Shown here piece after piece: positions 10,109 through 29,229 of a DNA stretch of 64,000 nucleotides. The stretch covers positions 2,357-66,356 of the forward strand of contig JBBTTO010000004.1 of assembly GCA_038064195.1 (NCBI GenBank). Direction: 5' to 3'. Within the stretch, counting starts at the first letter, position 1, and each line of letters begins with the position of its first letter. The DNA is from Patescibacteria group bacterium. Lineage in GTDB: Bacteria; Patescibacteriota; Microgenomatia; Levybacterales; UBA12049. The notes under the pieces are model-generated. The model was not told the DNA's origin. It did no database searches and worked only from the letters and a program-made list of their open reading frames with translations. The translations under genes were made by a program, and so were the position numbers.

Positions 10109-11212
10109 TTAAGGGGAGAGGAGGTCAATAAAGTTAGTGATAAATGACTTCTGTACTCCAACAACTTGTCCACTCTCAGCGGAAACAACCGCTTTAACCG
10201 GCTGAGTTACGGGGATAAATGCTAAGAACTTATATTCCTTTGTTCCATTCATCTCATAAACCGGGCTGCCATCAATAATTTGCAAGTCTACCTGCGTACC
10301 GGCACCCGAACTACCATCCGGAGTTGGCGTTGTAGATGTAGTATCAATTTGATCAACTATTTTTGTTGCTAAAAGAGCTTGAACGGCTTCATCAGGTAAG
10401 ATCGAAACAGCTTTACTTCCCGCAGCAGTCGTCACGATGAGCTGGTTAGTCCCTACATCAATAGAAAGAGGAAATTGGGTTGAGGCAACTACTCCATTTC
10501 GCCTGAGCGTTGGTTTACCGCTCTGGGAAGAAATTTCAATCCCTTCATCTTCCAACTCTTGTTCTGCTTCATTCTCCAGTTCTGATTGCTCGTCTTCATC
10601 AAGCTCAACTTCTGTACCATCCTCGTCTTCAATCTTTTTGACAACCTGTCCATTCACAACTTTATATTTAATTTTCAACTCGCCATGCTCTACCTCTATT
10701 TTTGTCGTTCCGTCATCTTCAACTTTTGTTTTGATTTTTTGACCATCAGATGTCTCAATTTCAGTCTCCTGTTTATTTTCCTCAATTTGCGTGTTGGTCT
10801 TAATAGTTCTGGTCGGAGTTACCACCCGTGATGAACCCCTATTTGAAGACTTGATGATAGAAGATTGAGCAGCGGATTTTTCTGCTTCTTTACGCTGTTC
10901 CTCAACTTTTTTCTCTCTTTCTTTTTGTTGTTCCTCAACTTTTTTCTCTTCCTCTTTTTTCTGCTCGTCTTTTTTATCTTCAGAACTATCGTCATCACCC
11001 AACACATATCCTGCTGCTCCGAGAACTTTTGTGGGGGAATCCAGACGTAACGCGGCTCTCTGAGAAAGAGTCTGAACGAGTGCTATCAGCAATAACGAAC
11101 TGAGGATAGCTCCCGAAACATAAACAATCCTTCCTGAGACAAAAAGCCCCTGAGGGTGTCTTTGAGTCTTTTTAATTGTAGAACTTCGCTTTTTGCTTTT
11201 TTTCCTACTCAT
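10109..11212 (-). CDS. hypothetical membrane-anchored protein with K/E-rich repeat region
   Basis: Basic N-terminus, one TM, EEEKKVEEQQKEREKK low-complexity repeats, C-terminal beta-rich domain. Confidence 0.55.
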   Translation of the reverse strand: MSRKKSKKRSSTIKKTQRHPQGLFVSGRIVYVSGAILSSLLLIALVQTLSQRAALRLDSPTKVLGAAGYVLGDDDSSEDKKDEQKKEEEKKVEEQQKEREKKVEEQRKEAEKSAAQSSIIKSSNRGSSRVVTPTRTIKTNTQIEENKQETEIETSDGQKIKTKVEDDGTTKIEVEHGELKIKYKVVNGQVVKKIEDEDGTEVELDEDEQSELENEAEQELEDEGIEISSQSGKPTLRRNGVVASTQFPLSIDVGTNQLIVTTAAGSKAVSILPDEAVQALLATKIVDQIDTTSTTPTPDGSSGAGTQVDLQIIDGSPVYEMNGTKEYKFLAFIPVTQPVKAVVSAESGQVVGVQKSFITNFIDLLSP

Positions 11213-11306: not shown

Positions 11307-12047
11307 ATGGAAGACGAAAATCAACCGCCAACCGGAACTCCAACAGACTATGTACGACCTCCTGATGCTCAACCTGTAAAAAGCACAGACCTTGATGCTG
11401 ATCGCCCCCCAATAGGAAATACGGGAGGTGTTCATTTATTACCTGACTCACCAGCTGTGGCTTTTCCTACATCCGAAGAGCTCCGATCACTTTCAGCTCA
11501 AAAATCCCCTGACGCAACCCAGGTTACTCCTGAAGAAATAACGGCTCTTAATACGACTCCTGAGATACCTCCTATCCCACCAGAATCAACCCATACAGCA
11601 GCTATGCCCTCAGAACAGAGTATCGATCCGACCATTAAGCCCTTTGATCCTACTACTGCTGAAGCACCTAAGGACGACTATGAAGAGATACTTCCTAATG
11701 GAAGGGTTGCCGGGATACGAGAGTTGCTAGGACGTGTTCCTCAAGCAGTTAAAACTATAGATAACGAAATTGCTGATATCCAAGCATTTTTAAATGATCC
11801 GCGATTGAAAAAAGCTGAGGGGATGGGCTTAATTCAAATAATGCCATCGACAAATGAAAATGTATCTCAAGCAGCATTGTCTCTTATTGCAGAAAAATTA
11901 GCTGATATTAACGCGGGTATGGATAGCACTACTGCTGACCTCCTGCCACAAATTGATGCTGCTGTAGCCAACGCTTCAAGTCAGGTAGCTCAGTCTCCCA
12001 CTTCACCTTCGCAAATAGATCCAGCACCTCAAACTAAAAAAGTTTGA
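11307..12047 (+). CDS. hypothetical acidic Pro/Thr-rich protein
   Basis: 246-aa ORF with no TM and a disordered composition. Confidence 0.45.
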   Translation: MEDENQPPTGTPTDYVRPPDAQPVKSTDLDADRPPIGNTGGVHLLPDSPAVAFPTSEELRSLSAQKSPDATQVTPEEITALNTTPEIPPIPPESTHTAAMPSEQSIDPTIKPFDPTTAEAPKDDYEEILPNGRVAGIRELLGRVPQAVKTIDNEIADIQAFLNDPRLKKAEGMGLIQIMPSTNENVSQAALSLIAEKLADINAGMDSTTADLLPQIDAAVANASSQVAQSPTSPSQIDPAPQTKKV

Positions 12048-12620: not shown

Positions 12621-13121
12621 TTAGGCAAGGACCATTTCGTAAGCTCCTGCGCCGTCTTCATAAAGATTTTTAATGACGCGGCTTACTTCGAAGCCGAATT
12701 TGTTCTCTGCTAAGGTCTTCATGGGGTGATTATCCAGCCTGGTATTAATAATAATGCGTGATGCTTTCAACTCTTTCAGTCTTTTAACACCGAAGGTGAA
12801 GAGCTTTTCGCCAAGTCTCTTCCCGCGATAGTTTTTGTCAACGGCAATAGACCCGATTTCGCCAATTCGTTGGATCCGACTGTTACTACCGCGGACTCTA
12901 CGAATTTCGGAGTGGACATAGCCTATAACTCGACCATTGTCCCTAATCACTCTCAGGCAGTCCGGATCCATGGCCAGTTCTTCGAGAAAATCCTCTTTAA
13001 CCCAATAATCCACAGGAAAAGCCTGCTTCTCAAGCTTAACTAACGACGGCAAATCCGCCATCTGAAATGGCTCAAGAGGATAATTATCAAATATTCTGAT
13101 AAAACGAGATCGAATCGGCAT
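12621..13121 (-). CDS. GNAT family N-acetyltransferase
   Basis: RGKRLGEKLF acetyl-CoA binding motif in a 166-aa ORF. Confidence 0.8.
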   Translation of the reverse strand: MPIRSRFIRIFDNYPLEPFQMADLPSLVKLEKQAFPVDYWVKEDFLEELAMDPDCLRVIRDNGRVIGYVHSEIRRVRGSNSRIQRIGEIGSIAVDKNYRGKRLGEKLFTFGVKRLKELKASRIIINTRLDNHPMKTLAENKFGFEVSRVIKNLYEDGAGAYEMVLA

Positions 13122-13810: not shown

Positions 13811-14818
13811 TTATGCATTGATCATGTATTGGATGAGCTTTCTATAGAGATTTTTGACAATTTCTTTTTGTTTGGCACCTGTCTCTGCATAGTAATCCAG
13901 CCCGGGGGCGGAATTGATCTCAATAACGGTGTAATCTGAAATGGGCTGATCTATAGGACCTCCTGTCATGATATCGACCCCACAAAACCTCAAACCCATA
14001 TCACGGGTTAACTTTATAGCCATTTTCTTATAATCCTCATGAAGCAAGTCTGTTACATCCTCAGCATCTCCGCCTGATGAAAGGTTGGCATTTGCCAGCA
14101 ATTCCATCGTCTTACCTGACTCCGGGATAGTATCTAATGTTGAATGAAGGTAAGTTAGAGAATGGGCGATACGCGGATCTTCAATAGTGAGTGTCGTATC
14201 CCGCCCGCGAGTTACGAACTCGGCTTGTTTGGCTTGTAATAACTGAGTAACCGTACTTTTACCGTTCCCGACAATTGCGAGTGGTGTACGTCGATACGCA
14301 CAGATGACCTCCCGATCTAACACAACTATGCGATAGTCTTTCCCCACAGCTACTTCTTGCACTATGGCTACGCGATCTTTAATATCCTCAAAAATCATAG
14401 ACATTGCGCCTTTAAGTTCGTCAACATTGTGAACCTTTACAACACCCCTGCCTTGACTTTCACTGTTAGGTTTGACTATGAGGGGGAAGCCAAGCTTTTC
14501 AGCGTACTTGACAGCGGCCATTGTATCTTTGTCTGATTTGACAATTTTGGACCAGTAATCTGAATAGAAAGAATCTCCTTCAGGGACGGGATAACCTAAT
14601 TCCTTCATGAAGTAGGAGGCAAAAGTCTTATCTTTGGCTATTTCACTGGCACCTAGTCCGTTGATATCAAAGCGTGTCGTGTGATAAAAAAGGATTTTTC
14701 CTGTCCTAGTCTTGATACGCCCGACGTAGCCGTAGCTGGGCTCAATGAGGATCTCATAGCCCAACTCGTCAGCAAATTCGGCTAAATAGGCGCTGATCTG
14801 GGGATAATGTTTATTCAT
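13811..14818 (-). CDS. ATP-grasp family ligase (RimK/cyanophycin-synthetase-like)
   Basis: KDKTFASYFMKELGYPVPEG and downstream ATP-grasp-type segments. Confidence 0.6.
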   Translation of the reverse strand: MNKHYPQISAYLAEFADELGYEILIEPSYGYVGRIKTRTGKILFYHTTRFDINGLGASEIAKDKTFASYFMKELGYPVPEGDSFYSDYWSKIVKSDKDTMAAVKYAEKLGFPLIVKPNSESQGRGVVKVHNVDELKGAMSMIFEDIKDRVAIVQEVAVGKDYRIVVLDREVICAYRRTPLAIVGNGKSTVTQLLQAKQAEFVTRGRDTTLTIEDPRIAHSLTYLHSTLDTIPESGKTMELLANANLSSGGDAEDVTDLLHEDYKKMAIKLTRDMGLRFCGVDIMTGGPIDQPISDYTVIEINSAPGLDYYAETGAKQKEIVKNLYRKLIQYMINA

Positions 14819-15345
14819 TGTGCTGAGAGGCTCGGTCTAGAATCTTCTTATCCTTATAGCATTGTATCATCTCCAGACTAAATGAGACAATATAAAAAGA
14901 GGTGTCTTATTTCCTATAATATCCCATAACAACACAACTGATAAATGATATATTTATAAAAGACAACGACAGAGCTTTATGTGTGGCAACAAGTATTTCT
15001 TCGATTTCTACAGTAGTCACCCACGCAAACATTTTCTTGTTATCAAGTCGTAATATCTTCGTGTAACCTGTTGTCTCAATAAGTCTATATGATCCTCGTT
15101 GAATAAATTGAACCACAGCAAAACTATATACCCTAATATTCTGTAAGGCATTGATTTTCGTCACTTCTAATCTTTGATATATATCACTGCATCCTGCCTT
15201 TTAAAGGAGTAAAAATAAGTCATGGAGATTGTATTGAAATCTTGGATGATCATTTTATCCACTCCAGTAGATCTGAGGGAGGAAAAGAATGTGAATTCCA
15301 TAATATTGCACAACATGATCTTGGAACGAAGGAGGTGATAATGCT

Positions 15346-15756
15346 ATGAATGATCTTTTACCAAGAAGCTTTTGGAGATTTCCGATAATTTCTTTTCCAT
15401 CGTTTATGGAAGACATCGAGGATCTCCTCCCAACATCAAATTTCTTAAACGGGTTATCTGTATTAGAAGACGATAAGAATGTCTATATTGAAGCATCAGT
15501 ACCAGGTCTTGACCCGAAAGAGGTAGATGTTACCTTTTCCAAAGGAGTGCTTACCATAAAAGGCGAGAAGAAGGAGGAAGAGAAAGGAAAGACGTTTCAC
15601 AGAAAAGCAACACGGTCTTTCTTCTATCGGGTAACACCAGGTGACGTTGACCCAAAGGCAGAGCCACAGGCAATATGTAAAAACGGAGTGATGACCGTAA
15701 CATTTGCAAAAGTGCATGAGGCAGAACCAAAAAAGATTGCAGTAAAAACTGCATGA
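15346..15756 (+). CDS. Hsp20/alpha-crystallin small heat-shock protein
   Basis: alpha-crystallin domain (VLEDDKNVYIEASVPGLDPKEVDV..GVLTIKGEK..NGVMTVTF); GGAGGTGA RBS. Confidence 0.85.
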   Translation: MNDLLPRSFWRFPIISFPSFMEDIEDLLPTSNFLNGLSVLEDDKNVYIEASVPGLDPKEVDVTFSKGVLTIKGEKKEEEKGKTFHRKATRSFFYRVTPGDVDPKAEPQAICKNGVMTVTFAKVHEAEPKKIAVKTA

Positions 15757-15878
15757 TTACAAAATGCGCTGGCAGGCTCGGGAAAAGGTAGGTGCGAAAA
15801 CGTGTCTACTGACAGTCTGCCAGCACAAAGAGCTTATCAAATTATTGTAAAAATACACTTGAAAGAAGGTGAGCATAC

Positions 15879-16283
15879 ATGAAGAAAATAAGTGTTACAA
15901 CAACAAAAGATAAAGAGGTTGTCGATATAACAGATGAGATAAATACGGTCCTTACAAAAAGCAAGACAAAAGATGGGCTTTGCCATTTATTCCTCCCTCA
16001 CTCAACAGCAGGCTTAACAACCGCGCTTATAAGTAGTGAGAATGAGCTTGATCTGATAGGCGTATTTGATATTGCTCTCCCACATATCACAAACCAACGA
16101 CATGAACATGAACATAGTCATATCATGAGCCGTTTACCCGATCATATTATTTCCTCTTTCCTTGGAACTTCTTTGGCAATTCCGATTAAAAATGGGGTAC
16201 TTGCCCTCGGAGAGTTTCAGCGAGTAGTACTGGTTGAGTTAAACGGACCGAGAAAACGTACTGTTATGTTGTATTACGATTGA
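15879..16283 (+). CDS. YjbQ/UPF0047 family protein
   Basis: HSTAGLTTALISSENE...GEFQRVVLVELNGP pattern typical of YjbQ. Confidence 0.65.
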   Translation: MKKISVTTTKDKEVVDITDEINTVLTKSKTKDGLCHLFLPHSTAGLTTALISSENELDLIGVFDIALPHITNQRHEHEHSHIMSRLPDHIISSFLGTSLAIPIKNGVLALGEFQRVVLVELNGPRKRTVMLYYD

Positions 16284-16295
16284 GAAAGAAGGATT

Positions 16296-17939
16296 ATGTA
16301 TTTTAAAGACAGAACAGAAGCAGGTCGGCTGCTTGCATACAAACTCAAAAAATATAGAGGTAAAGACGTTGTTGTTTATGCATTGCCAAGAGGTGGTGTT
16401 GTAACTGCGCTTGAAATAGCAAAGTATTTGGATGCTCCTTTAGATTTGATAATTACCCGAAAAATTGGCCACCCAGACAATCCCGAATATGCAATTGCAG
16501 CAACAGCTGAAAATGGACACCTTGTCGGGACTAAGGAAGAACTTGAGTCAGTTGATAAAGAATGGCTGAAAAAGGAAGTCTCAAAACAACGCCTTGAGGC
16601 AAGAAGAAGACGGGAACTCTATCTTGCTGGAAGAGCTGAAATCCAATCCCTTGGAAAAATAGCAATTCTCGTCGATGATGGTATCGCAACTGGGCTGACT
16701 ATGCGCAGCGGGATAAAAGAGCTCAAGCACAAAAAGCCCAAAAAAATTATTATCTCAGTCCCCATAATTCCCAAGACAACGGCCAGTATTCTAAATCAAG
16801 AAGCAAATGACGTAGTGGCGCTTGATATTCCTGAAGATTATGAATTCTTAGGTGCAGTAGGCGCGTACTATAGCGATTTTTCGCCAGTTGAAGATGAGGA
16901 GGTCATCGCAATGCTCAAGGCCTATGAAAAACAGAGAAAAGAACCAATTAAACAAAATCAGGCATTTTTCTCACAACCACTAATTGATCCTACACTCTTT
17001 ACCTTTCCCTCACATAGATACATGGTTGAGAAGTTAAAAGAAATACCCAATCTTACTATTGGAAAATTTTCCCTGGAGCGTTTCCCCAATAACGAACTCT
17101 ATATTATGCTGCATACACATGCAACTGAGCGAGAATGTATCGTTGTTGGATCAATTTCTCCTCCTGACACGAACTTGATTTCTTTCCTTCTCCTGTGCCA
17201 CACATTAAAAAAAGAGAATGCGCATAGTATAACAGCAGTACTTCCTTATCTTGCCTATTCTCGTCATGATAAAAAAGAGTATCAAAGAAGTTATGCGACT
17301 GTACTTATCGGCGAATTACTCAGTACGTCAGGGGCAGATCGTGTTGTCACTGTTGATGTCCATAGTCTGCATGTAAAGCAGCTTTTTCCAATTCCGTTGA
17401 TTTCACTCTCTCCAGCCAAATTATTTGCCGAAGAATTGAAAAAGTTAAACTTACAAAACGTAACAATTGTTGCGCCGGATGAAGGAGCAATAAAACGCGC
17501 TGAAGCGGTAAGAAGAGAGGCAGGAATCAAAAAAGAAATTGCGTATGTTGTAAAAAAACGGACAGCTGATGGAGTAAAACTGATAGAGCTTCATGGAAAA
17601 GTAAGTAAAACTGCAGTTATTGTCGATGATATTCTTGATACCGGTAAAACGCTTATTTCCTGTTGCGAAAAACTCAAGGAAAAAGGCGCTCGGGATATAT
17701 ATATCATGGTTACCCATGGACAATTTAACGGCATTGAATGGAAGCAATTATGGAAACTTGGGGTAAAACGCATGTACTGTACAGATACTATTCCTTTACC
17801 AAAACATGCCAAATCGAAAAATATTACCGTTGTTTCAATTATTCCTTTACTTGTCGATGAATTAAAAGAGGAAAACAAGGATATATTTACCGTTGATGCA
17901 AGTCAACGATACAGCTTTTATGATTATGATGAGCGATAG
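16296..17939 (+). CDS. fusion protein: type I phosphoribosyltransferase domain + ribose-phosphate pyrophosphokinase (PRPP synthetase) domain
   Basis: N-terminal half has PRTase motif ILVDDGIATGLTM; C-terminal half has Prs motifs NELYIML...AVLPYLAYSRHDKK and VIVDDILDTGKTL. Confidence 0.75.
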   Translation: MYFKDRTEAGRLLAYKLKKYRGKDVVVYALPRGGVVTALEIAKYLDAPLDLIITRKIGHPDNPEYAIAATAENGHLVGTKEELESVDKEWLKKEVSKQRLEARRRRELYLAGRAEIQSLGKIAILVDDGIATGLTMRSGIKELKHKKPKKIIISVPIIPKTTASILNQEANDVVALDIPEDYEFLGAVGAYYSDFSPVEDEEVIAMLKAYEKQRKEPIKQNQAFFSQPLIDPTLFTFPSHRYMVEKLKEIPNLTIGKFSLERFPNNELYIMLHTHATERECIVVGSISPPDTNLISFLLLCHTLKKENAHSITAVLPYLAYSRHDKKEYQRSYATVLIGELLSTSGADRVVTVDVHSLHVKQLFPIPLISLSPAKLFAEELKKLNLQNVTIVAPDEGAIKRAEAVRREAGIKKEIAYVVKKRTADGVKLIELHGKVSKTAVIVDDILDTGKTLISCCEKLKEKGARDIYIMVTHGQFNGIEWKQLWKLGVKRMYCTDTIPLPKHAKSKNITVVSIIPLLVDELKEENKDIFTVDASQRYSFYDYDER

Positions 17940-17944
17940 AAACT

Positions 17945-18583
17945 ATGGAAAATTTAGTACGCATAAAAATCAACAGTATAACACTTGAAGGGATGTTGGC
18001 TATTCCTAAAAATGCAAAAGGAATTGTGCTTTTTGCGCATGGAAGCGGCAGCAGTAGATTATCTCCGCGCAATAATTTTGTCGCAACTGTTTTACAGAAG
18101 GCAGGGATTGGAACATTGCTCATAGATTTACTCACAGAACAAGAAGATGAGATATACCAAACCCGTTTTGACATCGACCTCTTAACTGATCGTCTCGTTA
18201 CCATAATAGAATGGCTTAACAAAAATTCTGACACGAAGCATCTATCTCTAGGGCTTTTTGGAGCAAGTACGGGTGCTGCATCTGCATTAAAGGTAGCGGC
18301 AAAACTTGGAAAAAAGATAAAAGCAGTCGTGTCCCGGGGTGGACGTCCTGATCTGGCAATGGATGTATTAGATAAAGTTACCTCACCTACTCTTCTTATT
18401 GTTGGAGGTAATGATTTCGGTGTTATTGAGCTTAATGAACAAGCATTTCAGGTATTAGGATCCACAAAAAAGCTAGAGATTGTTGAGGGAGCCACCCATT
18501 TATTTGAAGAAGAGGGGGCTTTAGCAGAGGTAGCACATCTTGCAACAAGTTGGTTTAAGAAGTATTTACCTAAACAAATTTAA
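17945..18583 (+). CDS. dienelactone-hydrolase-like alpha/beta hydrolase
   Basis: GIVLFAHGSGSS and nucleophile elbow FGASTGA. Confidence 0.7.
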   Translation: MENLVRIKINSITLEGMLAIPKNAKGIVLFAHGSGSSRLSPRNNFVATVLQKAGIGTLLIDLLTEQEDEIYQTRFDIDLLTDRLVTIIEWLNKNSDTKHLSLGLFGASTGAASALKVAAKLGKKIKAVVSRGGRPDLAMDVLDKVTSPTLLIVGGNDFGVIELNEQAFQVLGSTKKLEIVEGATHLFEEEGALAEVAHLATSWFKKYLPKQI

Positions 18584-18588
18584 AGATT

Positions 18589-19590
18589 ATGAAATTAGTC
18601 TTAGTTGGTGATGTCATGTTGGGTCGATTAGTTAATGAAGAACTAAAAAGAGAAAGTCCTAAGTTGCCTTGGGGAGATACATTGCCAATCTTTAAAAATG
18701 CGGATCTGAGAATTTGCAATTTGGAATGTGTTTTGTCAGATGTAGGAGAACCTTGGCCCAACAAAACTTTTCATTTTAGAACTGATGAGAAAAATATTCA
18801 GACGCTTCTGGCAGCAGAAATTGGCATGGTTTCGCTTGCCAATAATCATGCACTTGACTATGGCCATGAAGCACTGCTTCGCATGATGAAAATTTTAGGT
18901 GAAAATGCCATTAATTATGCTGGCATCGGACCAAATTTTTTAGAAGCAGCTGAGCCAGCAATCTGTCGTGTTAATTCTCAAAAAGTAGGGCTTCTTGCAT
19001 TTACCGATAATGAGCCTGACTGGGAGGCAAAAGAAAATAAGCCAGGATTATTTTACGTACCAATTGACCCCGATTCAATCGGGGTTGATGCAAGAGACAA
19101 GAGAGCGCAATATCTTTTTGAGCTAATTCAAAAAACCCGTGATGACGTTGATCTTCTTATAGTATCAGCACACTGGGGACCAAATTGGGGATATTCCCCC
19201 CCAAAGGAGCATATCGCCTTCGCTCACCTTCTTATTGACTCTGGTGCCGATATTATCTTTGGTCATTCTCCTCATGTCTTCCGGGGTATTGAGCTCTATA
19301 AAGACAAACCAATTTTCTATAGTTGCGGGAATTTTATCGACGATTACGCCGTAGATGAAATCGAGAGAAATGATGAGTCTTTCGTTTTTCTTCTTGAGAC
19401 AAAAAAGAGTGGAGTAACAAAACTCCAACTATATCCAACGCTCATCGCAAATTTTCAGGCGAAAAAAGCTCATTCTGAGGATGCAAGACGCATTGGCCTG
19501 CTTATGCAAAAACTCTCAAGTGAACTTGGAACACCTTCGCAGTGGAACAGAGCAAAAGAAATGTTAGAGATACAGATGACTATGAATTAA
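18589..19590 (+). CDS. CapA-family metallophosphoesterase (PGA_cap)
   Basis: LVGDVMLGR N-terminus and LANNHALDYG motif. Confidence 0.8.
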   Translation: MKLVLVGDVMLGRLVNEELKRESPKLPWGDTLPIFKNADLRICNLECVLSDVGEPWPNKTFHFRTDEKNIQTLLAAEIGMVSLANNHALDYGHEALLRMMKILGENAINYAGIGPNFLEAAEPAICRVNSQKVGLLAFTDNEPDWEAKENKPGLFYVPIDPDSIGVDARDKRAQYLFELIQKTRDDVDLLIVSAHWGPNWGYSPPKEHIAFAHLLIDSGADIIFGHSPHVFRGIELYKDKPIFYSCGNFIDDYAVDEIERNDESFVFLLETKKSGVTKLQLYPTLIANFQAKKAHSEDARRIGLLMQKLSSELGTPSQWNRAKEMLEIQMTMN

Positions 19591-19607
19591 GGAATTAACA
19601 GAAGCCC

Positions 19608-21047
19608 ATGGAAATAACACATCATATAAAACAAATAAACAATACGCTCTGGAAAGTCCCGGTCTCATTTCTTGACGGAATGCAGGTGCCGGTCTTCTTC
19701 TTTTTGGATGAAAAGACTCTCGATGATGTTTTGAAAACAGAGCTCGTTGACTACTTAGCAACGATTGCCACACTCCCGGGTATAAAACAAGCGGTTATAG
19801 CTTTGCCAAACTTGAGCCGAACAGATGGTGTTCCAAGCGGGGTGGTTATTGCATCAGATGCAATTGATGGATTTATTTTCCCAGCAGCAGTTGGTTATGA
19901 TATCAACTGTGGAGTCAGGATTTTACGAGCTGATTGCACAGAGGATGAGATAAAATCATCTACCCTAAAACTAGCAAGTCAACTCTTTCGCGAGATTCAT
20001 TCCACCATTGGCCATACACCTTCAATCAAGATTGGCACGGATAAGCTTGATAAGGTCTTACAGGAAGGGGCACATCGTCTCATCAAGGATGGTTTTGGAG
20101 AGGAAGTTGATTCCCATTATGTAGAATCGTTTGGCGTGCTTGAAAATGCAGATCCGCAAGCAATTTCTCAACATGCCAAGAAGAAAGGACGCGAACAGCT
20201 GGGTACATTAGGAGACGGAAGCCACTTTATCCAAATTGACAAGATAACTGAGATTTTCGATGAAGATGCAGCAAATGCATATAACATAAACAAGGGCCAA
20301 CTGATTATTCTTATTCATTCAGACTCAAGAGATCTTGGCCATCAGGTAGCAATTGAAGAGATCCATAAGGTCAAAGAGGAAATGACAAGATACTATAAAG
20401 GATCGGTGCCTTTTGAACTCAGCGGTGTTCCTGTCTCTTCTTTGGAAGGACAGAGATGTTTCAATGCCATGGCTGCAGCTGCAAATTTTGCCTTTGCCAA
20501 CAGGCAAATACTAACACATGAGCTTCGAAAGATATGGAAAGATATTCTGGGTAAATCATGCGGGTCGCTTCACGTGCTTTATGACCATGCACATAATCTT
20601 GCCAAACTTGAGTCTCATATGATTGAAGGACGAAAAGAGAGGCTTTTAGTTCATCGCAGAGGTGCAACACGTGCATTTGGACCAGAATCTTCTGAACTCC
20701 CGGCTGATTATCAGCCAGTTGGACAACCTCTCGTGCTTCTTGGAGCAATGGGAACACCCTCATATCTTCTGAGAGGGTCAGGGCTTGAACAGACATTCGC
20801 TTCAAGTAGCCACGGAGTCGGAAGAGTCATATCATTTACTCGCGGAAGAAAAGATATACAGGGGTCAGTTACAGTAGAAAGTCTTACAACAAAAGGTGTT
20901 ACTGTAGAAGTAGAAACACTTGCAGACATAGGAGGAGATGATCCAAAAACATATAAAAACGTCAACTCAGCTCTTCATATTTTGCAAGCGTCGGGCATTG
21001 CGTATCCCGTTGCACGGCTAGAACCAATTGTCATCGATAAAGGATGA
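19608..21047 (+). CDS. rtcB: RNA-splicing ligase RtcB (paralog 1)
   Basis: GYDINCGVRIL, HRRGATRAF, GAMGT.SY and SSHGVGR motifs. Confidence 0.9.
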   Translation: MEITHHIKQINNTLWKVPVSFLDGMQVPVFFFLDEKTLDDVLKTELVDYLATIATLPGIKQAVIALPNLSRTDGVPSGVVIASDAIDGFIFPAAVGYDINCGVRILRADCTEDEIKSSTLKLASQLFREIHSTIGHTPSIKIGTDKLDKVLQEGAHRLIKDGFGEEVDSHYVESFGVLENADPQAISQHAKKKGREQLGTLGDGSHFIQIDKITEIFDEDAANAYNINKGQLIILIHSDSRDLGHQVAIEEIHKVKEEMTRYYKGSVPFELSGVPVSSLEGQRCFNAMAAAANFAFANRQILTHELRKIWKDILGKSCGSLHVLYDHAHNLAKLESHMIEGRKERLLVHRRGATRAFGPESSELPADYQPVGQPLVLLGAMGTPSYLLRGSGLEQTFASSSHGVGRVISFTRGRKDIQGSVTVESLTTKGVTVEVETLADIGGDDPKTYKNVNSALHILQASGIAYPVARLEPIVIDKG

Positions 21048-21921
21048 GGGATTGGAGAAAAGTATGGATTATTTAATATTATTCATCTCAATACTCTTTT
21101 TTGTACAAATACTTATTCCTTTTGTGCAAAAAAGTCTTCTTTGGCGAAGACGACAATCTTTAATACGCACGCTTGAGCAAAAGAGGAAATCCAGAGTGAT
21201 TACACTGATTCATAGACAAGAGACATTGAGTCTCCTTGGAATTCCAATAACACGCTATATTGATATCGAAGATTCTGAGCAAGTTCTCAATGCGATACGC
21301 ATGACTCCACCCCACAAGGCGATCGACATAATTCTTCATACGCCCGGGGGGCTCGTTCTGGCAGCAGAGCAAATTGCATTCGCATTGAAGCTGCATGAGG
21401 GAAAGATAAGGGTCATTGTTCCACACTATGCTATGTCCGGGGGGACAATGATAGCCTTGGCTTCGGACAAGATCATTATGAGTCGTGCTGCTGCTTTAGG
21501 GTCGCTCGATCCCGTGCTTGGAAGTCCAGGCATAGGATATTACCCTGCGGCTTCTATTGTTCATGCCCTAAGCGTTCCCAATAGAAATCGAGAGGATACA
21601 ACCTTAATTTTGGGAGATATAGCTAAAAAAGGGTTAGATCAAATATATAAGTCTGTTTTTAAATTACTAAGTAAGCATTTTGATGAAAAAAAAGCGTCGT
21701 CACTGGCCTTCACCTTGACACAAGGGAGATGGACGCATGACCATCCGCTTTTTTTCGAACAAGTTAAAGATTTGGGATTACCTGTTACAGACAATGTTCC
21801 TAACGAAATTTATGAACTTATGCAACTTTACTCTCAGCCAACACGGATGAGAGGTGGGGTTGAGTTTATTCCCTCACCCTATGTAGCTCCCGCCCAAAAA
21901 CCAAAGGAGAAGAAAGAATGA
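21028..21921 (+). CDS. membrane-anchored Clp-fold serine protease (SDH/S49-like)
   Basis: N-terminal TM; ILHTPGGLVLAAEQIA...HYAMSGGTMIALASDKIIM..LGSLDP motifs. Confidence 0.6.
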   Translation: MSSIKDEGLEKSMDYLILFISILFFVQILIPFVQKSLLWRRRQSLIRTLEQKRKSRVITLIHRQETLSLLGIPITRYIDIEDSEQVLNAIRMTPPHKAIDIILHTPGGLVLAAEQIAFALKLHEGKIRVIVPHYAMSGGTMIALASDKIIMSRAAALGSLDPVLGSPGIGYYPAASIVHALSVPNRNREDTTLILGDIAKKGLDQIYKSVFKLLSKHFDEKKASSLAFTLTQGRWTHDHPLFFEQVKDLGLPVTDNVPNEIYELMQLYSQPTRMRGGVEFIPSPYVAPAQKPKEKKE

Positions 21922-22334
21922 AAACATTTACGATTATTCCACATACCGCAGATGTACGATTGAGGATTGAGGCAGACTCGCTTGAGAAACTTTTTGTAAG
22001 CTCCCTGAAGGGTATGAATAGAATATTGAATAAGGAATATGAGAAATACCTAGATAAGCATCCTATTCTCGAGGAGGTTTCTGTGACATCTTATGACAAA
22101 ACATCACTTTTGATTGATTTTCTCTCTGAAATTTTGACACGTTCTCATATGCATAAAGCAATTTTTCATACCATTGACCATTTCGGGATAGAAGGTAACT
22201 CTCTTCATGCCCATCTATTAGGAGCACCGGTGGATAAATTTACAGAAGACATAAAAGCTGTTACTTACCATGAGGCAGAGGTTAAAAAAAATGACAAAGG
22301 CGAATATGAGACAACTATTGTGTTTGATATTTGA
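21918..22334 (+). CDS. archease (RtcB activator)
   Basis: MKTFTIIPHTADVRLRIEADSLEKLF N-terminus and 138-aa size; 4-nt overlaps with both neighbours. Confidence 0.7.
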   Translation: MKTFTIIPHTADVRLRIEADSLEKLFVSSLKGMNRILNKEYEKYLDKHPILEEVSVTSYDKTSLLIDFLSEILTRSHMHKAIFHTIDHFGIEGNSLHAHLLGAPVDKFTEDIKAVTYHEAEVKKNDKGEYETTIVFDI

Positions 22335-22378
22335 TTTCAGAATACTCGAAAAACTCATCGAATCAGACTGAATATATT

Positions 22379-23827
22379 ATGAGTATCGATAAAAGCAATT
22401 TCAAAAAAATAAATGCTTATACCTGGCAGATACCTCAAACATTTAGAAGTGATATGCGTGTGCCGGCAATAATTTTCGCTAGCGAGAAGATGCTTGACGA
22501 CATTTTACAAGATAGGTCAATAGAACAACTTATCAATGTCACAACGCTTCCAGGTATCCGTAAGGCAGCACTTGTGATGCCTGACGCGCATGAAGGGTAC
22601 GGATTCCCAATTGGAGGTGTTGCTGCAACAAGCTTCCCAAATGGTGCTATTTCTCCAGGCGGTATTGGCTATGATATCAACTGCGGAGTCAAACTGCTTA
22701 AATCAGACCTCGAGGCATCCTCGCTCAATCACCACCAGGGGTTGCTTGCTAGAAGATTGTACGAGGAAATTCCATCTGGCGTTGGGCATGGTGGAAGACT
22801 GACATTGATTGAAAAACGGCTCGATGAGGTATTGGTAAAAGGAGCAGCATGGATAGTTGATAACGGATATGGGGAAAAGGAAGACATCCATTTTATTGAA
22901 TCTGAAGGATGTTTAGACAATGCTGATCCACAAGCTGTCTCAGATCACGCCAAAAAAAGAGGCAAAGATCAGTTGGGAACACTGGGTGCCGGAAATCACT
23001 TTGTTGAGGTTGATGTTATTGATGAAATTTTTGATGAGACTATTGCATCTACTTTTGGTTTGTCTCTCAATCAAGTCGTGGTACTCATCCATACAGGCTC
23101 CCGGGGACTTGGCCATCAAGTCGCAACCGATTATATCCGTATCATGAATCAATCCATGACAAAATACGGTATTAATGTTCCTGATCGAGAACTTGCCTGC
23201 GCTCCCTTATCTTCTCCTGAAGGAACAGCTTACTTCAATGCGATGGCTGCTAGTGCCAACTTTGCCTTTGCAAATAGAGAGTTGATAGCGTGGGAGGTCA
23301 GAAAAGTGTTTAAGGAAATGTTTGGAGAAAGACTCTCAACGCTTTATGACGTTGCTCACAATATCGCTAAAATTGAAGAGCATGTCATTAATGAAAAAAA
23401 ACGAAGCAGAAAAAAAGTAATTGTTCACAGAAAAGGTGCAACACGTGCATTTGGGCCAAATAGTCCTGAACTTATCGACGAATATAGTCTAACCGGTCAA
23501 CCAGTACTGATCCCGGGAAGTATGGGAACAGCATCATATGTTCTTGCGGGAACTACAGAGGCAATGGAGTTATCGTTTGGATCATGTTGCCATGGAGCAG
23601 GGAGAACATTATCCCGCCATGCTGCCAAAGCACAGATTTCAGGGAAAAAATTAAAGATAGATTTAGAAGAACAAGGAATATTTATTCAGGCCGGGTCAAT
23701 TTCAGACCTTGCTGAAGAAGCACCACTGGCCTACAAGAACATCCATGATGTTGTAGATGTCGTTGATAAAGTAGGGATTGCGAAAAAGGTTGCCAGGCTG
23801 AGACCTGCTGTTGTGGTCAAAGGGTAG
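22379..23827 (+). CDS. rtcB: RNA-splicing ligase RtcB (paralog 2)
   Basis: GYDINCGVKLL, HRKGATRAFGP and SCCHGAGR motifs; ORF-track start 22331 is TTG, first ATG at 22379. Confidence 0.9.
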   Translation: MSIDKSNFKKINAYTWQIPQTFRSDMRVPAIIFASEKMLDDILQDRSIEQLINVTTLPGIRKAALVMPDAHEGYGFPIGGVAATSFPNGAISPGGIGYDINCGVKLLKSDLEASSLNHHQGLLARRLYEEIPSGVGHGGRLTLIEKRLDEVLVKGAAWIVDNGYGEKEDIHFIESEGCLDNADPQAVSDHAKKRGKDQLGTLGAGNHFVEVDVIDEIFDETIASTFGLSLNQVVVLIHTGSRGLGHQVATDYIRIMNQSMTKYGINVPDRELACAPLSSPEGTAYFNAMAASANFAFANRELIAWEVRKVFKEMFGERLSTLYDVAHNIAKIEEHVINEKKRSRKKVIVHRKGATRAFGPNSPELIDEYSLTGQPVLIPGSMGTASYVLAGTTEAMELSFGSCCHGAGRTLSRHAAKAQISGKKLKIDLEEQGIFIQAGSISDLAEEAPLAYKNIHDVVDVVDKVGIAKKVARLRPAVVVKG

Positions 23828-23881
23828 TATGAGGAATCAGAACCATCAACCAACGCAGTATAAAAATTACAAGTAGGAAAT

Positions 23882-24115
23882 ATGGGGAAAGCTAAACAAA
23901 TACAAAAATATCTGCCTTATGTTCCTTTGTGGGAGTTAGAGATAGAAGAGCTTACTGGTCATAATATAGAAATGCAAGGAAGGCAGGATGTAAATAAGCT
24001 GCTCAAAGCGGGGTGGATTTTGCTACATATTTACACGCTTCGTTATCAAGAAGACGGGGTATGGAGGGAGCGGCCAATGGCAATCTTAGGAAAACCAAAA
24101 AGGGGCAAACGTTAA
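23882..24115 (+). CDS. small hypothetical protein
   Basis: 77-aa ORF with AGGAAA RBS 4 nt upstream. Confidence 0.35.
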   Translation: MGKAKQIQKYLPYVPLWELEIEELTGHNIEMQGRQDVNKLLKAGWILLHIYTLRYQEDGVWRERPMAILGKPKRGKR

Positions 24116-24223
24116 TTTTATATTTAAACGTCTTAGAGCTTCTCCTGTATACGATGGATTAATTCTCAATCTTTAAAAGACTGGAAAAAATCTGTGACCT
24201 AAATCACTTTCATTCTTTGATTA

Positions 24224-24706
24224 TTGTCAATGCGAAATACCCTCTTCCTAACGTATTATATTATTATGCATTTTACAATTACGACAAAGCTATTCCATAT
24301 TTCAGATAAAGACTGTCAGTATATAGAAAAACTAGTAAAAAAACTTTTGCAGCTCACACCTTGGAAGGAACCAGACTACCCGCTTCTTGACATACTCCTC
24401 CGAAAGCACAGGAAGAAAAGCCTTGATCATATTGAAAAAAGGCTTATTTTGGAAGGTGCTATACAACCCAAACACGGACACGAAACAATTGATAATCCTG
24501 TATATTATGACGGCACTTTAGATCTTATTCTTCCAAAGAAACGTATTGTGGCAAATATGCTGGGTAAAACAGTACATGAGGCTCTCAAAGATGGGTTTGA
24601 CGAGTTGTTCCTGGAACTTGATAAGTATAAGGGACTACATTTTGCTAATGACAGCGAGTATTACAACCATAGGACAATTCGACAAAATAGGAAAGAAATC
24701 TTATGA
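24224..24706 (+). CDS. hypothetical protein, translationally coupled to the eRF1-like gene
   Basis: 160-aa ORF; its stop overlaps the next ATG (ATGA). Confidence 0.45.
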   Translation: MSMRNTLFLTYYIIMHFTITTKLFHISDKDCQYIEKLVKKLLQLTPWKEPDYPLLDILLRKHRKKSLDHIEKRLILEGAIQPKHGHETIDNPVYYDGTLDLILPKKRIVANMLGKTVHEALKDGFDELFLELDKYKGLHFANDSEYYNHRTIRQNRKEIL

Positions 24707-25599: not shown

Positions 25600-25673
25600 T
25601 GGCTGCGGGACATGGATTCGAACCATGGTAAACGGATCCAAAGTCCGTTGTCCTACCTTTAGACGATCCCGCA
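25600..25673 (-). tRNA. tRNA-Gln (anticodon UUG)
   Basis: cloverleaf with U1-A72, anticodon loop CUUUGGA, T-arm CATGG-TTCGAAT-CCATG, 3' GCCA. Confidence 0.85.
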
Positions 25674-25676
25674 AAG

Positions 25677-25916
25677 TTATTTGAGCCTTCGATTAAGATA
25701 AGCTCTTCCAAAACCAGTTTTCAGCTGTTTTTCTCTGTTAATTGCAGCTGATTTCTTCAGACATGCTTCGTAATAAACAAGAGCAAAAGGTATTCTTAGT
25801 CTAGTCGAGCTGACATTCCCTAAATTATGCTCATTTATCCGAGAAACCAAGTCATCAGTCCAACCAATGTATAATTCATTATCCTTTTTACTCTTCAATA
25901 CGTATGTATAAAACAT
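25677..25916 (-). CDS. GIY-YIG nuclease family protein
   Basis: MFYTYVLKS..ELYIGWTDDLVSRINEHN GIY-YIG core; start taken at the internal ATG with AAAGG RBS. Confidence 0.7.
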   Translation of the reverse strand: MFYTYVLKSKKDNELYIGWTDDLVSRINEHNLGNVSSTRLRIPFALVYYEACLKKSAAINREKQLKTGFGRAYLNRRLK

Positions 25917-25934
25917 ACCTTTAGACGACCCGCC
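25916..25934 (-). repeat. duplicated 5' fragment of tRNA-Gln
   Basis: GCGGGTCGTCTAAAGGTA matches tRNA-Gln 5' end GCGGGATCGTCTAAAGGTA at 18/19. Confidence 0.6.
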
Positions 25935-26293
25935 TGCAGCGCTATGCAAGCGAAGCGCACCATTGCGAGCAGGTCCCGCAGTGTACCCAATATTGTAGCA
26001 TACAATAGCCTCAAAATGGAGGTTTTTAGGTATTATGGAGATCAAGTGGCTCATAAATCCACCCCATAGTTTGACCTTGATATCCCTTTTTGTTATTATC
26101 TCCCCACTCAAGATAAGTATTGATGGGCAATTGCGTTCATTTTTTGCTACTTGAGTATATTTTACATATTTCGCTCGTTTACATATTCAGTTGTTTGTAA
26201 TTAGTTCTTCAAGCTGCATCCACGAGGTCTCTCCTAAGGCTTGGTGGGTGCAGCTTGCACCGGGGTAACTTCGTCGTATCCAGGAGGATAAAC

Positions 26294-26827
26294 ATGACAC
26301 GCAGATCCAAGCCCGGTGAGAGTCAGTCTCCAACCGAAACTACGAGTCAGGATGTGGTGGAAACGCCCACAAAATCCGAGGACGACAAGGTCGCTCGTCC
26401 AAGGAGTGTAACTCACTACCGATGCTCTTTCTGCAATAAAGGCCAGGAAGAGGTCCGGCGTCTCATCGCCGGCCCGAATCGGGTCTACATCTGCGACGAA
26501 TGTGTGCAGCTCTGCCGCGAGATTATCGAAGAGGAGGAACCCGCAAAAGCGGTCATTCAAGATGCCCGCCGGCGTGCGCAGCAGAACGTGGAGAGCCTCA
26601 AAACCACACAACGTCTCCTGAGCGCTGCTCAAACCCTGCTGGAACCCGCATCGATGAATGACGGATTCGTTTCCGACGAGCTGCGTAAGCAGCTTGAGAC
26701 ACAATGCGTCCAGGCCATCCAGAAGGCCGGCGCTAGCTTCGGCCTGAAGTTGGTTCCCGTCGAAGACGCAACTCCGACAGCGGACGAGGCGGGCAGCCAG
26801 AATGGCATCGACGATACCACGGAGTAA
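26294..26827 (+). CDS. stand-alone ClpX-type C4 zinc-finger (ZBD) domain protein
   Basis: [31 protein letters not shown] almost identical in pattern to the ClpX N-terminal ZBD; AGGAGG RBS; ~60% GC. Confidence 0.7.
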
Positions 26828-26983
26828 CAGCTGATTCATGCGAGAGAAAGCACCCCACTGATTCCGAAAGGAGTCTCTCCACGAAAGTGGTATTCGAAAG
26901 AGTAGGGGTGTTTTTGCTATTTATATGCAATTGAAAATATATTACGAAAATAAGAACTTCCGACATTGCTAACTAATACTAGC

Positions 26984-28495: not shown

Positions 28496-28499
28496 TAAA

Positions 28500-28943: not shown

Positions 28944-29095
28944 TTTATGAGAGTATGAGATAGTGTATCACGACTATATAAGAAAACTGTAAGCAAAAGA
29001 ACTCCAATAGGACAATGCTACAGGAAACCATTTCATAATTAGGTGACAGCCTTTTTTCTTTAAATTGCAACAAGGCATTTCATGCGCGGGCCGCT

Positions 29096-29105
29096 TTTGC
29101 TATAA
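29096..29105 (+). promoter_or_regulatory. extended -10 promoter (TGcTATAAT) for the tRNA-Gly/Phe unit
   Basis: tgctataat lies 10 nt upstream of the tRNA-Gly 5' end. Confidence 0.45.
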
Positions 29106-29115
29106 TAGTGTAGTC

Positions 29116-29187: not shown

Positions 29188-29229
29188 CATAATCAGTTCT
29201 CCCACAAAATGTCTTAAGGACACAACTCT

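Follow-up and report, generated by a model that had tools for sequence, protein, structure and literature searches.

A conserved fusion of a phosphoribosyltransferase to a complete PRPP synthetase domain in a stress- and repair-type gene array of a Patescibacteria bacterium

Type I phosphoribosyltransferases (PRTases) of the TT1426 type are represented structurally by TT1426 from T. thermophilus (PDB 1wd5), and we found no member in the literature whose activity or acceptor has been characterised. Among the members listed (of 1,141 clusters at E<=1e-30), the family consists mostly of standalone proteins of ~210 aa. TT1426-family PRTases elsewhere have a DLH-like hydrolase as a neighbour and stress genes around them, as at the locus described here. 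The DosR dormancy regulon of M. tuberculosis includes the putative PRTase Rv0571c, Rv0574c, HspX and RtcB (Rv2631) (PMC5309233, PMC7801807). Rv0574c is termed "pyroglutamate synthase-like" in a DosR review (PMC5309233 / PMC7801807), and no Prs is reported in the lists of the regulon given in these two papers (PMC5309233, PMC7801807). The PRTase, Rv0574c, Hsp20 (HspX), RtcB and USPs of the DosR set are co-located or co-regulated, and the same families occur both in the window, the whole 64-kb stretch of DNA analysed here, and in the relative Curtissbacteria L092. The likeness is one of gene content, and the relatives L004 and L092 have a Crp/Fnr-type regulator in contrast to DosR. We take Rv0574c to be CapA-like and Rv0571c to have a PRTase+DLH architecture, with which the actinobacterial PRTase::DLH fusions in two sampled loci (L070 and L088) agree.

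Among PRPP synthetases (Prs, ribose-phosphate diphosphokinase), the closest described system is PRPPS2 of T. thermophilus (TthPRPPS2, PDB 5t3o/7pn0), an active enzyme with 11 U/mg (PMC5199209). The Prs of this locus has in common with it the full two-lobed fold, all catalytic residues and the D37N change. Unlike TthPRPPS2, it carries a 230-residue N-terminal extension that is another enzyme, a TT1426-type PRTase. Members of the TT1426 family are otherwise joined to a hydrolase or to nothing, whereas here the C-terminus of the PRTase is joined to a full Prs. Such fusions are unmentioned in a 2026 survey of >35,000 PRPS sequences. On balance, we lean towards reading the protein as a bifunctional enzyme that makes and uses PRPP within a self-supplied phosphoribosylation module of a stress/repair cluster. 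The features of the locus, numbered by their positions in the window, are listed below.

15346..15756, + strand: small heat-shock protein Hsp20, which opens the co-directional array (Pfam HSP20)
15879..16283, + strand: YjbQ/UPF0047 protein, ending 12 nt before the fusion (Pfam UPF0047, TIGR00149)
16296..17939, + strand: PRTase::Prs fusion gene, 547 aa (ORF call with ATG start; domain searches; homologs)
16296..16919, + strand: N-terminal TT1426-type type I phosphoribosyltransferase domain, aa 1-208 (PDB 1wd5, E=2.1e-40)
16920..16994, + strand: interdomain linker, aa 209-233, in which a long helix ends and a disordered stretch follows (AlphaFold2)
16995..17870, + strand: complete Prs domain, aa 234-525 (TIGR01251, 263 bits)
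17945..18583, + strand: DLH-like alpha/beta serine hydrolase (Pfam DLH; PDB 2o2g, E=1.2e-67)
18589..19590, + strand: cytosolic PGA_cap/CapA-family metallo-enzyme (Pfam PGA_cap, 258.8 bits)
19608..21047, + strand: RtcB RNA ligase paralog 1, the more diverged of the two (Pfam RtcB, 381.6 bits)
21028..21921, + strand: SDH-type ClpP-like serine protease (Pfam SDH_protease, 350.9 bits; NF047768, 360 bits)
21918..22334, + strand: archease, RtcB cofactor (Pfam Archease, 93 bits)
22331..23827, + strand: RtcB RNA ligase paralog 2, which closes the array (Pfam RtcB, 561.8 bits)

A preliminary description of this DNA had proposed a single 547-aa ORF joining a PRTase to a complete Prs, and domain-by-domain profile searches bear it out; the hydrolase and the CapA-family gene follow in the order described there. 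The motifs quoted there are all found, with ILVDDGIATGLTM, AVLPYLAYSRHDKK and VIVDDILDTGKTL in the fusion and FGASTGA in the next ORF. The N-terminal domain matches Pfam Pribosyltran over aa 9-190, and aa 1-208 align end to end with chain residues 1-204 of 1wd5, including the C-terminal "hood". Its PPi loop is P31-R32-G33-G34 and its PRPP loop D127-D128-G129-x-A131-T132-G133-x-T135, the same loops as in TT1426; as PRGG and DDGxATGxT they are invariant or at least 90% conserved across 32 diverse members and 66 fusions. The family motif GAVGxYYxDFxxVxDEEV is present as well. Several other polar residues, K56 and E64 among them, do not vary in the 66 fusions and reach at least 90% conservation in the 32 members, which are mostly standalone. 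With its catalytic motifs intact, the PRTase half is predicted to be catalytically competent.

On the Prs half, Pfam recognises Pribosyltran_N (PF13793, aa 234-346) and Pribosyl_synth (PF14572, aa 431-522), and the TIGR01251 model ribP_PPkin covers aa 235-525 with positions 4-297 of 309 at 263 bits against a cut-off of 113. The best scores with NCBIfam subfamily and equivalog models are 214 (cut-off 297), 187 (296) and 179 (438) bits, so that the half falls below every equivalog cut-off and cannot be called a housekeeping ortholog on this basis. Foldseek aligns it to Prs structures with target TM-scores of 0.85-0.89, the best match being T. thermophilus PRPP synthetase II (7pn0/5t3o, 0.85-0.88). 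R323, H356, D395, K420 and R422 correspond to E. coli R96, H131, D170, K194 and R196, and D444, D445, D448, T449 and T452 to E. coli D220, D221, D224, T225 and T228. A loss of Prs catalytic residues from the C-terminal half, raised as a concern in the preliminary description, did not occur: all ten are kept in at least 69 of the 70 fused homologs. H356 and K420 are invariant in the 70, as are D395, D444, D445, D448, T449, G450 and T452, and R422 is found in 69. In E. coli numbering, Lys194 and Arg196 of Prs belong to the flexible loop, and His131 is catalytic. His131 is a contact residue, and ATP is bound by F35, D37, E39, R96, Q97 and D98 (PMC6332680). From this ATP-binding set the Prs half retains F, E, R and D, with D37 replaced by N and Q97 by H; position 37 is N in 69/70 fusions and position 97 is H or Q. 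These changes appear compatible with activity, since the active TthPRPPS2 is altered at the same positions (N at 37, S at 97). Compared with class I Prs, the fusion differs by this H at Q97, by K at the E. coli position G227 of the ribose-5-phosphate/PRPP loop, and by a C-terminal tail that is disordered in the AlphaFold2 model. Judged by its conserved residues, the Prs half is predicted to be a competent PRPP synthase.

The same model has a mean pLDDT of 91 over both halves and drops below 50 only at residues 220-228 of the linker and 529-547 of the tail. Its pTM of 0.60, together with the disordered linker, indicates no defined interdomain packing or interface. The linker is shorter in homologs of ~505 aa than in the 547-aa fusion. 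The idea that a sequencing or assembly error merged two separate genes draws on the relative L092, in which PRTase and Prs are overlapping separate genes, a form that differs little from the fused one. It is already refuted by the recurrence of the fusion, and we give it practically no weight. The identical 547-aa protein occurs on 19 contigs, three of which represent three samples from two assembly sources. The PRTase-Prs architecture is found in 70 of the best 120 90%-identity clusters, mostly from Patescibacteria, at 37-75% identity, with a conserved junction and a continuous reading frame. The missed stop or frameshift for which the preliminary description had asked a check is thus excluded by the identical contigs, the diverged fusions and the confident folding of both halves, and its call for comparison with related genomes is answered by the 70 clusters. 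The fusion is a real, evolutionarily conserved gene of an ultra-small groundwater bacterium and no artefact.

The hydrolase encoded downstream is aligned over its whole length with PDB 2o2g, an entry named "dienelactone hydrolase", and scores 34.9 bits with Pfam DLH (cut-off 21), a match that indicates membership of the fold family only. It has a G-x-S108-x-G elbow, D136 and H185, together with the near-invariant R38, R42, R83, R131 and R134; the Ser/Asp/His triad and the five arginines are conserved in the partners from 31 loci. Classical dienelactone hydrolases use a Cys nucleophile. We rejected such a Cys-His-Asp enzyme here, since the 31 partners conserve a serine, Ser108 of G-A-S-T-G, as the nucleophile. 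As the 2o2g entry name gives no function either, the name "dienelactone hydrolase" probably misdescribes the chemistry.

For a view of the gene neighbourhoods, we sampled 80 genome loci, with the PRTase family as the entry point. In 27 of them the hydrolase gene neighbours that of the PRTase or is joined to it (fused in 5), in agreement with the earlier claim that the PRTase is of the kind found beside DLH-like hydrolases. Diverged fusions in L005, L006, L008 and L011 likewise have the hydrolase as the next gene downstream, so the partnership is conserved; its absence at one diverged fusion (L007) counts against the reading we prefer. Prs is located within 3.6 kb of the PRTase in 11/80 loci, which belong to Patescibacteria, Alpha- and Gammaproteobacteria, a "Candidatus Lustribacter" MAG and a Woesearchaeota archaeon (DPANN). 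Even with a null set generously at 0.02 per locus, this linkage has a chance probability of ~6e-7. The linked Prs proteins are divergent (160-260 bits, below every housekeeping equivalog cut-off). PRTase-hydrolase(-Prs) sets also occur in large-genome Proteobacteria, Actinobacteria and cyanobacteria, and there the linked Prs, with scores so far under the housekeeping models, looks like an extra copy. One homolog (P0006) is a triple fusion PRTase-Prs-DLH, the Curtissbacteria locus L092 encodes PRTase and Prs in two genes and keeps the order PRTase, Prs, DLH, PGA_cap, and L009 has a rearranged set in which Prs and PGA_cap are followed, after another gene, by a PRTase::DLH fusion. The proposed coupling of a PRPP maker to a PRPP consumer gains independent support from the linkage in unrelated phyla, from the split arrangement and from the triple fusion. 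As for the channelling claimed along with it, co-localisation and fixed stoichiometry stand, whereas physical channelling finds no structural support in a model with no interdomain interface. Two further points count against the preferred reading. Prs proteins of this lineage also exist on their own, away from any module (L010, L091 and P0083), so the fused Prs may be the only Prs of the cell; and 69/80 loci have no Prs near the PRTase, so a dedicated PRPP supply is optional.

The genes around the fusion are tightly spaced, with 12 nt between YjbQ and the fusion, 5 nt between fusion and hydrolase, 5 nt between hydrolase and the CapA-family gene, and overlaps further downstream. Hsp20 occupies the same position in L004 and L092, and 9/80 loci have it no more than 10 kb from the PRTase. 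L004 retains YjbQ upstream, L092 has it too, and the SDH-type protease is found in both, where the surroundings add PCMT, baeRF and LigT besides the Crp/Fnr regulator. Unbiased clustering of PRTase neighbours returned Usp (9 loci), Hsp20, BON, DUF2267, PEBP and PolX; the recurrent neighbours, RtcB included, are stress/repair genes and not genes of nucleotide metabolism. Two observations count against the reading that we prefer: the more diverged fusions lack CapA, Hsp20, YjbQ and RtcB in their surroundings, and the sampled PRTase neighbourhoods show no recurring enzyme that would make an acceptor.

In the mechanism that we propose, the C-terminal half would convert ribose 5-phosphate and ATP to PRPP and AMP, and the N-terminal half, of the TT1426/Rv0571c type, would transfer the phosphoribosyl group from that PRPP to an acceptor. 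We infer that PRPP passes between the two halves. The DLH-like hydrolase would be a translationally coupled, obligate partner that most likely acts on the phosphorylated product or a precursor. The nine-gene array of Hsp20, YjbQ, the module, two RtcB, archease and the ClpP-like protease is most likely expressed in stress, dormancy or repair and not for routine salvage, as the gene neighbours and the mycobacterial literature suggest. More tentatively, and with clearly less confidence, PRTase, Prs and hydrolase (with or without CapA) might form a self-contained pathway to a non-canonical phosphoribosylated product and thus a conserved arm of dormancy or repair. A small metabolite with a signalling or protective role could be the product; alternatively, damaged RNA or another damaged macromolecule could receive a phosphoribosyl mark. 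The programme could also involve Hsp20, USP, RtcB-archease and baeRF, with Rv0571c/Rv0574c of the DosR regulon as its mycobacterial counterpart. If so, the fusion would serve as a Rosetta stone marking PRPP as the donor. For the widespread, stress-associated PRTase-hydrolase pair, the fusion offers a first tangible hint of the chemistry involved.

According to the preliminary description, salvage could make up for de novo pathways that are missing. Plain nucleobase salvage, with a standard-base PRTase fused to the only Prs of an auxotrophic reduced-genome bacterium for efficiency, would suit the source, a ~1.08 Mb groundwater contig, and the homologs with a source name, which are mostly Patescibacteria. 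A search of the 64-kb window found no second Prs, the standalone Prs of the same lineage could be housekeeping enzymes, and one diverged fusion has NUDIX, HAD and inorganic pyrophosphatase genes on its flanks, a setting reminiscent of nucleotide metabolism. We nevertheless regard this explanation as unlikely, because the PRTase family, often with hydrolase and Prs, is found in the large-genome bacteria named above, where the linked Prs falls well short of the housekeeping models. Standard base salvage needs no serine hydrolase with five conserved arginines, the recurring neighbours (Usp, Hsp20, BON, RtcB, PolX) belong to stress and repair, and the N-terminal domain matches the NCBIfam HGPRT, PyrR and adenine-PRTase models only over short PRPP-loop stretches far below cut-off. 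Nothing in the evidence points to the deoxyribonucleotide product that had also been considered.

Some PRTase-fold proteins, such as PurR and PyrR, regulate through binding of PRPP or a nucleotide. A housekeeping Prs tuned by a non-catalytic PRTase-like half that senses PRPP or a nucleotide is an explanation we would place lower still. It would fit a PRTase family with no reported enzymatic activity, in which Rv0571c is listed as "function not yet characterized", and a fusion whose canonical Prs C-terminal tail is replaced by the disordered segment 529-547, which may mean an altered allosteric site and a need for another regulator. The complete PPi and PRPP loops and the conserved K56 and E64 argue against this explanation. 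Moreover, regulation of Prs cannot be the function of a family that is mostly standalone and has no Prs near it in 69/80 loci, and it leaves the conserved hydrolase partner unexplained. Retron type III-A, ShosT and PsyrT have PRTase effectors, and by that analogy the module might act as a toxin or in defence against phages. Pointers in this direction are weak PADLOC matches to PRTase_III-A, ShosT and PsyrT, faint Pfam PRTase-CE and PRTase_2 matches, and RtcB RNA repair, which is often discussed as counter-conflict (PMC6514570). The PADLOC matches amount to ~40 residues at the generic PRPP-binding loop with 15-34 bits, and the other nine proteins have none. With neither a retron reverse transcriptase nor other defence partners seen, and with a PRTase family that is broadly distributed among housekeeping-like, stress-type neighbours, a defence role is highly improbable and close to refuted.

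In the self-supplied phosphoribosylation module that we favour, the CapA-like protein would be a facultative fourth component. It matches positions 1-255 of 255 of the PGA_cap model from residue 2 onwards. Its closest solved structure is MslH (8gq9, E=2.4e-24), and its sole NCBIfam match is epimerase_MslH (NF038314). The PGA_cap family, of calcineurin-like fold, is common to CapA/PgsA, MslH and this protein. A CapA/PgsA role in poly-gamma-glutamate synthesis was rejected because there are no CapB/CapC-like neighbours and no N-terminal room for a membrane anchor, and an MslH-type peptide epimerase because the match reaches 98.9 bits against a cut-off of 700; the lasso-peptide genes of MslH are not nearby here. 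The earlier label "CapA-like phosphoesterase" was right about the family and overstated as to phosphoesterase, since the nearest characterised or solved relative is the peptide epimerase MslH. A CapA-family gene also lies beside the module in L004, L009, L092, L027, L028, L045 and L088. Counted as 4/80 sampled loci plus L004, L009 and L092, this weak link is recurrent and not universal.

An open reading frame in the window joins a phosphoribosyltransferase (PRTase) to a PRPP synthase (Prs), and two further genes follow it directly, as the preliminary description had reported:

16296..17939, + strand: PRTase::Prs fusion, ATG start, 547 aa
17945-18583, + strand: DLH-fold alpha/beta hydrolase, 212 aa, 5-nt gap after the fusion, PDB 2o2g matched at E=1.2e-67
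18589-19590, + strand: PGA_cap/CapA-family protein, 333 aa, 5-nt gap after the hydrolase, 258.8 bits over the whole model

That this one frame of 547 aa holds a PRTase and a complete Prs is borne out by domain models and by solved structures. Pfam places Pribosyltran at aa 9-190 of the N-terminal half and the two Prs halves, Pribosyltran_N (aa 234-346) and Pribosyl_synth (aa 431-522), in the C-terminal half. The C-terminal half reaches 263 bits on the NCBIfam model TIGR01251 (ribose-phosphate diphosphokinase; cut-off 113) and covers model positions 4-297 of 309. TT1426 of Thermus thermophilus (1wd5) aligns end to end with residues 1-208 (E=2.1e-40), while residues 234-516 align with the Prs of T. 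thermophilus (E=4e-46) and B. subtilis (E=2e-41). An AlphaFold2 model calculated from an alignment of 66 fusions has a mean pLDDT of 91, with disorder limited to residues 220-228 and the tail 529-547. No interdomain interface is defined in this model, and its pTM of 0.60 suggests two well-folded domains on a flexible tether without a fixed interface. A fold search with the model gave Prs structures for all of the top 50 listed matches and is therefore uninformative on the acceptor pocket.

The fusion is not a sequencing error. A protein identical to it is carried by 19 contigs; the three listed stem from separate samples (ENA ERZ1292617, Logan SRR32696706 and Logan SRR32696700), and the longest is a 1.08-Mb contig from groundwater. 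When proteins of 480 aa or more were counted as fused homologues among the best 120 90%-identity clusters, the fused architecture was found in 70, at identities from 75% down to 37%. Against this record, the probability of an artefact of sequencing or assembly is negligible. The fused homologues carry mostly patescibacterial source names (Roizmanbacteria, Shapirobacteria, "Patescibacteria group"). In one homolog of 758 aa (P0006) the hydrolase is also fused to the PRTase-Prs pair. Locus L009 has a standalone Prs, 63% identical to the C-terminal half of the window protein, that adjoins a gene for PGA_cap and one for a PRTase::DLH fusion of 469 aa. The Curtissbacteria locus L092 (GCA_024654445.1) encodes PRTase (222 aa) and Prs (303 aa) in two distinct genes that overlap, and its genes run as in the window: PRTase, Prs, DLH, PGA_cap, SDH protease, LigT, archease, RtcB. 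The fusion in the window is thus a conserved pair of neighbours in joined form. A fused PRTase-Prs followed by DLH also occurs in a MAG labelled Bacteroidota (L011, 7985-10265), where the N-terminal PRTase domain is 64% identical to that of the window; this is a case of mis-binning or of lateral transfer from Patescibacteria.

The Prs catalytic residues expected in the C-terminal half are conserved across the 70 fusions. In E. coli numbering, R96, H131, D170, K194, D220, D221, D224, T225 and T228 are kept in 70/70 fused Prs domains and R196 in 69/70; for K194, R196 and D220/D221/D224 we presume the roles that they have in E. coli Prs. Position 37 is N instead of D in 69 of the 70, a lineage signature, and position 97 is Q or H. 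The contacts in E. coli Prs are F35, D37, E39, R96, Q97, D98 and H131 (PMC6332680). N37 is shared by the closest structure to the fused Prs, T. thermophilus "PRPP synthetase II" (7pn0/5t3o), which has a higher activity than the other PRPP synthetase of that organism (11 vs 0.85 U/mg; PMC5199209). Besides the TT1426 PRTase, T. thermophilus thus encodes PRPPS2 (TT_RS06430), a second Prs paralog from the N37 lineage to which the window's Prs belongs. The N-terminal half carries the PPi loop P31-R32-G33-G34 and the PRPP loop D127-D128-G-x-A-T132-G133-x-T135, whose residues are either invariant or conserved to at least 90%, both among 32 diverse, mostly standalone members and among the 66 fusions. 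From these motifs, both halves of the fusion look catalytically competent.

At E<=1e-30 the N-terminal domain matches 1,141 clusters of 50% identity, and at E<=1e-10 it matches 7,851; the best 150 are mostly standalone proteins of ~210 aa. We collected 80 genome loci by the PRTase family motif, from many bacterial phyla and some archaea, and searched them with the window proteins. In 27 of the 80 the hydrolase gene is fused to the PRTase (five loci) or lies within 300 nt of it. Prs lies within 3.6 kb in 11, fused in one, a count with P ~6e-7 if a generous 0.02 per locus is taken as the null. It is immediately downstream of the PRTase, in the order of the fusion, in Patescibacteria (L023), Gammaproteobacteria (L029) and Woesearchaeota (L056), whereas the alphaproteobacterial loci L024, L045 and L082 have Prs-DLH-PRTase arrays. 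The ten standalone linked Prs all score 160-260 bits on TIGR01251, under every housekeeping equivalog cut-off (296-536 bits), so those in Proteobacteria are most probably divergent additional copies. In a rough NJ tree, fused and standalone Prs forms are interleaved in one lineage with fused forms basal. This suggests either an ancient fusion that was split repeatedly or fusion on several separate occasions, a choice for which such a tree is too coarse. Since L010, L091 and P0083 are standalone members without the module, this Prs lineage is not exclusively module-bound. The 64-kb window holds no second Prs. PGA_cap flanks the PRTase, near a divergent Prs, in a "Candidatus Lustribacter" MAG that also has RtcB (L027, 8284-15243) and in an alphaproteobacterial MAG that also has DLH (L045, 8157-11917); part of the window gene set thus recurs in distant phyla.

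The hydrolase is the only constant companion around diverged fusions, lying directly downstream in L005, L006, L008 and L011. L007 (6792-10350), with the most diverged fusion examined (38% identity), is the only one of them without it. On its flanks are genes for a NUDIX and a HAD hydrolase and for inorganic pyrophosphatase. These may be substitute partners, which would drive forward a reaction that releases PPi. Across 31 loci the hydrolase family keeps G-x-S108-x-G, D136 and H185 together with five near-invariant arginines (R38, R42, R83, R131 and R134), which hint at an anionic, possibly phosphorylated, substrate. Classical dienelactone hydrolases use a Cys nucleophile. As the nucleophile here is Ser, the family name is probably misleading for this enzyme.

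For the third gene, family membership as CapA-like stands, and phosphoesterase activity is only one possibility, because among solved and curated proteins the peptide epimerase MslH is closest, with a score far under the cut-off of the MslH model. The protein lacks an N-terminal extension that could hold a membrane anchor, and CapB/C are absent among its neighbours. PGA_cap also adjoins the module in L004, L009 and L092; CapA, Hsp20, YjbQ and RtcB accompany closer relatives of the fusion only (L004). PGA_cap lies within 10 kb of the PRTase in 4/80 loci (within 30 nt in three), as does RtcB in 4/80; each of these links is individually weak (P ~0.08 at a null of 0.02 per locus).

When all ORFs up to 5 kb from the PRTase were clustered all against all, an unbiased approach, and the cluster representatives annotated, universal stress protein ranked first (9 loci). 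Next, among generic families, came Hsp20 (6 by clustering, 9 by phmmer), BON, DUF2267 and PEBP (5 each) and PolX (4). Together with RtcB, archease, LigT, PCMT and baeRF in Microgenomates arrays, these neighbours have a stress/repair flavour. [quoted passage not shown] The titles and abstracts of twenty papers that name Rv0571c, and two reviews, describe no functional study of it. The Burkholderia lxa low-oxygen locus was rejected as a second documented home of the PRTase, since alpha-crystallin, a phospholipid-binding protein and USPs are listed there and this PRTase is not; nor is the PRTase mentioned in the Burroughs & Aravind paper on release factors and RtcB with its baeRF neighbourhoods (PMC6514570).

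In L092 (1-14523) and L004 (3214-15337) a larger co-directional island surrounds the module, with genes for Hsp20, the protein-repair methyltransferase PCMT, baeRF family 10, YjbQ, Usp, LigT, archease, RtcB and an Apyc1-like metallo-beta-lactamase; this set resembles a dormancy/repair regulon in Microgenomates. Hsp20, PCMT, baeRF family 10, YjbQ and Usp lie upstream of the module in L092, where a Crp/Fnr-type regulator is divergent; in L004 the regulator is on the same strand just upstream of Hsp20. Both relatives have a single RtcB. In the window, an SDH-type ClpP-like protease and archease are bracketed by two RtcB paralogs (19608-23827, +) in overlapping or near-overlapping frames, the first clearly more divergent than the second (Pfam 382 vs 562 bits). 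A scan of 14700-24600 for promoters (32 vs 24.7±4.8 in shuffles) and terminators (8 vs 7.3±2.1) did no better than shuffles, so operon limits rest on spacing only. An Rfam scan of the window found tRNAs only, with no riboswitch upstream of the array.

We consider the following scheme the most likely one, with somewhat better than even confidence. The C-terminal half would make PRPP, the N-terminal half would transfer the phosphoribosyl group to some acceptor, the hydrolase would process the product of the PRTase or its precursor, and the set would be deployed with stress/repair genes. No acceptor-making enzyme recurs near the PRTase. Fusion, fission, triple fusion and cross-phylum adjacency support a putative coupling of PRPP maker and user, and fusion guarantees co-localisation and 1:1 stoichiometry. 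Of the channelled synthesis proposed earlier this coupling gains support, and physical channelling finds none in a model without an interface. Plain base salvage is an unlikely reading of the same PRPP-using pair. Quite unlikely is a regulatory PRPP-sensing domain on a housekeeping Prs: the PPi and PRPP loops are retained in the N-terminal half. A defence module is highly improbable, because PADLOC matches are loop-level only and indicate no defence-system membership.

The TT1426/Rv0571c PRTase with its DLH-like partner forms a large, widespread family without a reported biochemical function, and in M. tuberculosis it is part of the dormancy regulon. Its crystal structure is years old (entries with neighbouring PDB codes have fold-search release dates of 2002-2006). 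What is new here is the architecture joining two known families. Fused proteins are named only "ribose-phosphate diphosphokinase" in public databases, and a 2026 survey preprint of >35,000 PRPS sequences describes many bacterial classes and leaves fusions and gene context unmentioned (PMC13252144). Some of these recently catalogued "extra" classes may be dedicated suppliers for PRPP-consuming modules, not general back-ups. The fusion, its split and triple-fused relatives and the recurrent recruitment of divergent Prs paralogs in unrelated phyla would provide the first specific, testable statement on the chemistry of the family, namely that the donor is PRPP and that its supply is worth hard-wiring. 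The single polypeptide is a convenient reagent for acceptor discovery. We find the fusion moderately interesting because an orphan, dormancy-linked enzyme family becomes a directly testable problem.

The opposite strand carries, shortly before the array, genes for a standalone ATP-grasp protein of 335 aa (13811-14818, -) and a GNAT acetyltransferase (12621-13121, -). The former is closest to the ATP-grasp part of cyanophycin synthetase, at 164 bits, far under the cut-off of 850. At E<=1e-5, Pfam recognises no domain in two sizeable ORFs, 10109-11212 (-, 367 aa) and 11307-12047 (+, 246 aa). Eight tRNA genes lie at 25600-36172, five of them clustered tightly at 29116-29998 (Gly, Phe, Leu, Leu, Val). 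This cluster is adjoined by a block of higher GC (26-30 kb, GC 0.46), with the minus-strand ORFs 26234-26839 and 26984-28495, which lack a Pfam match.
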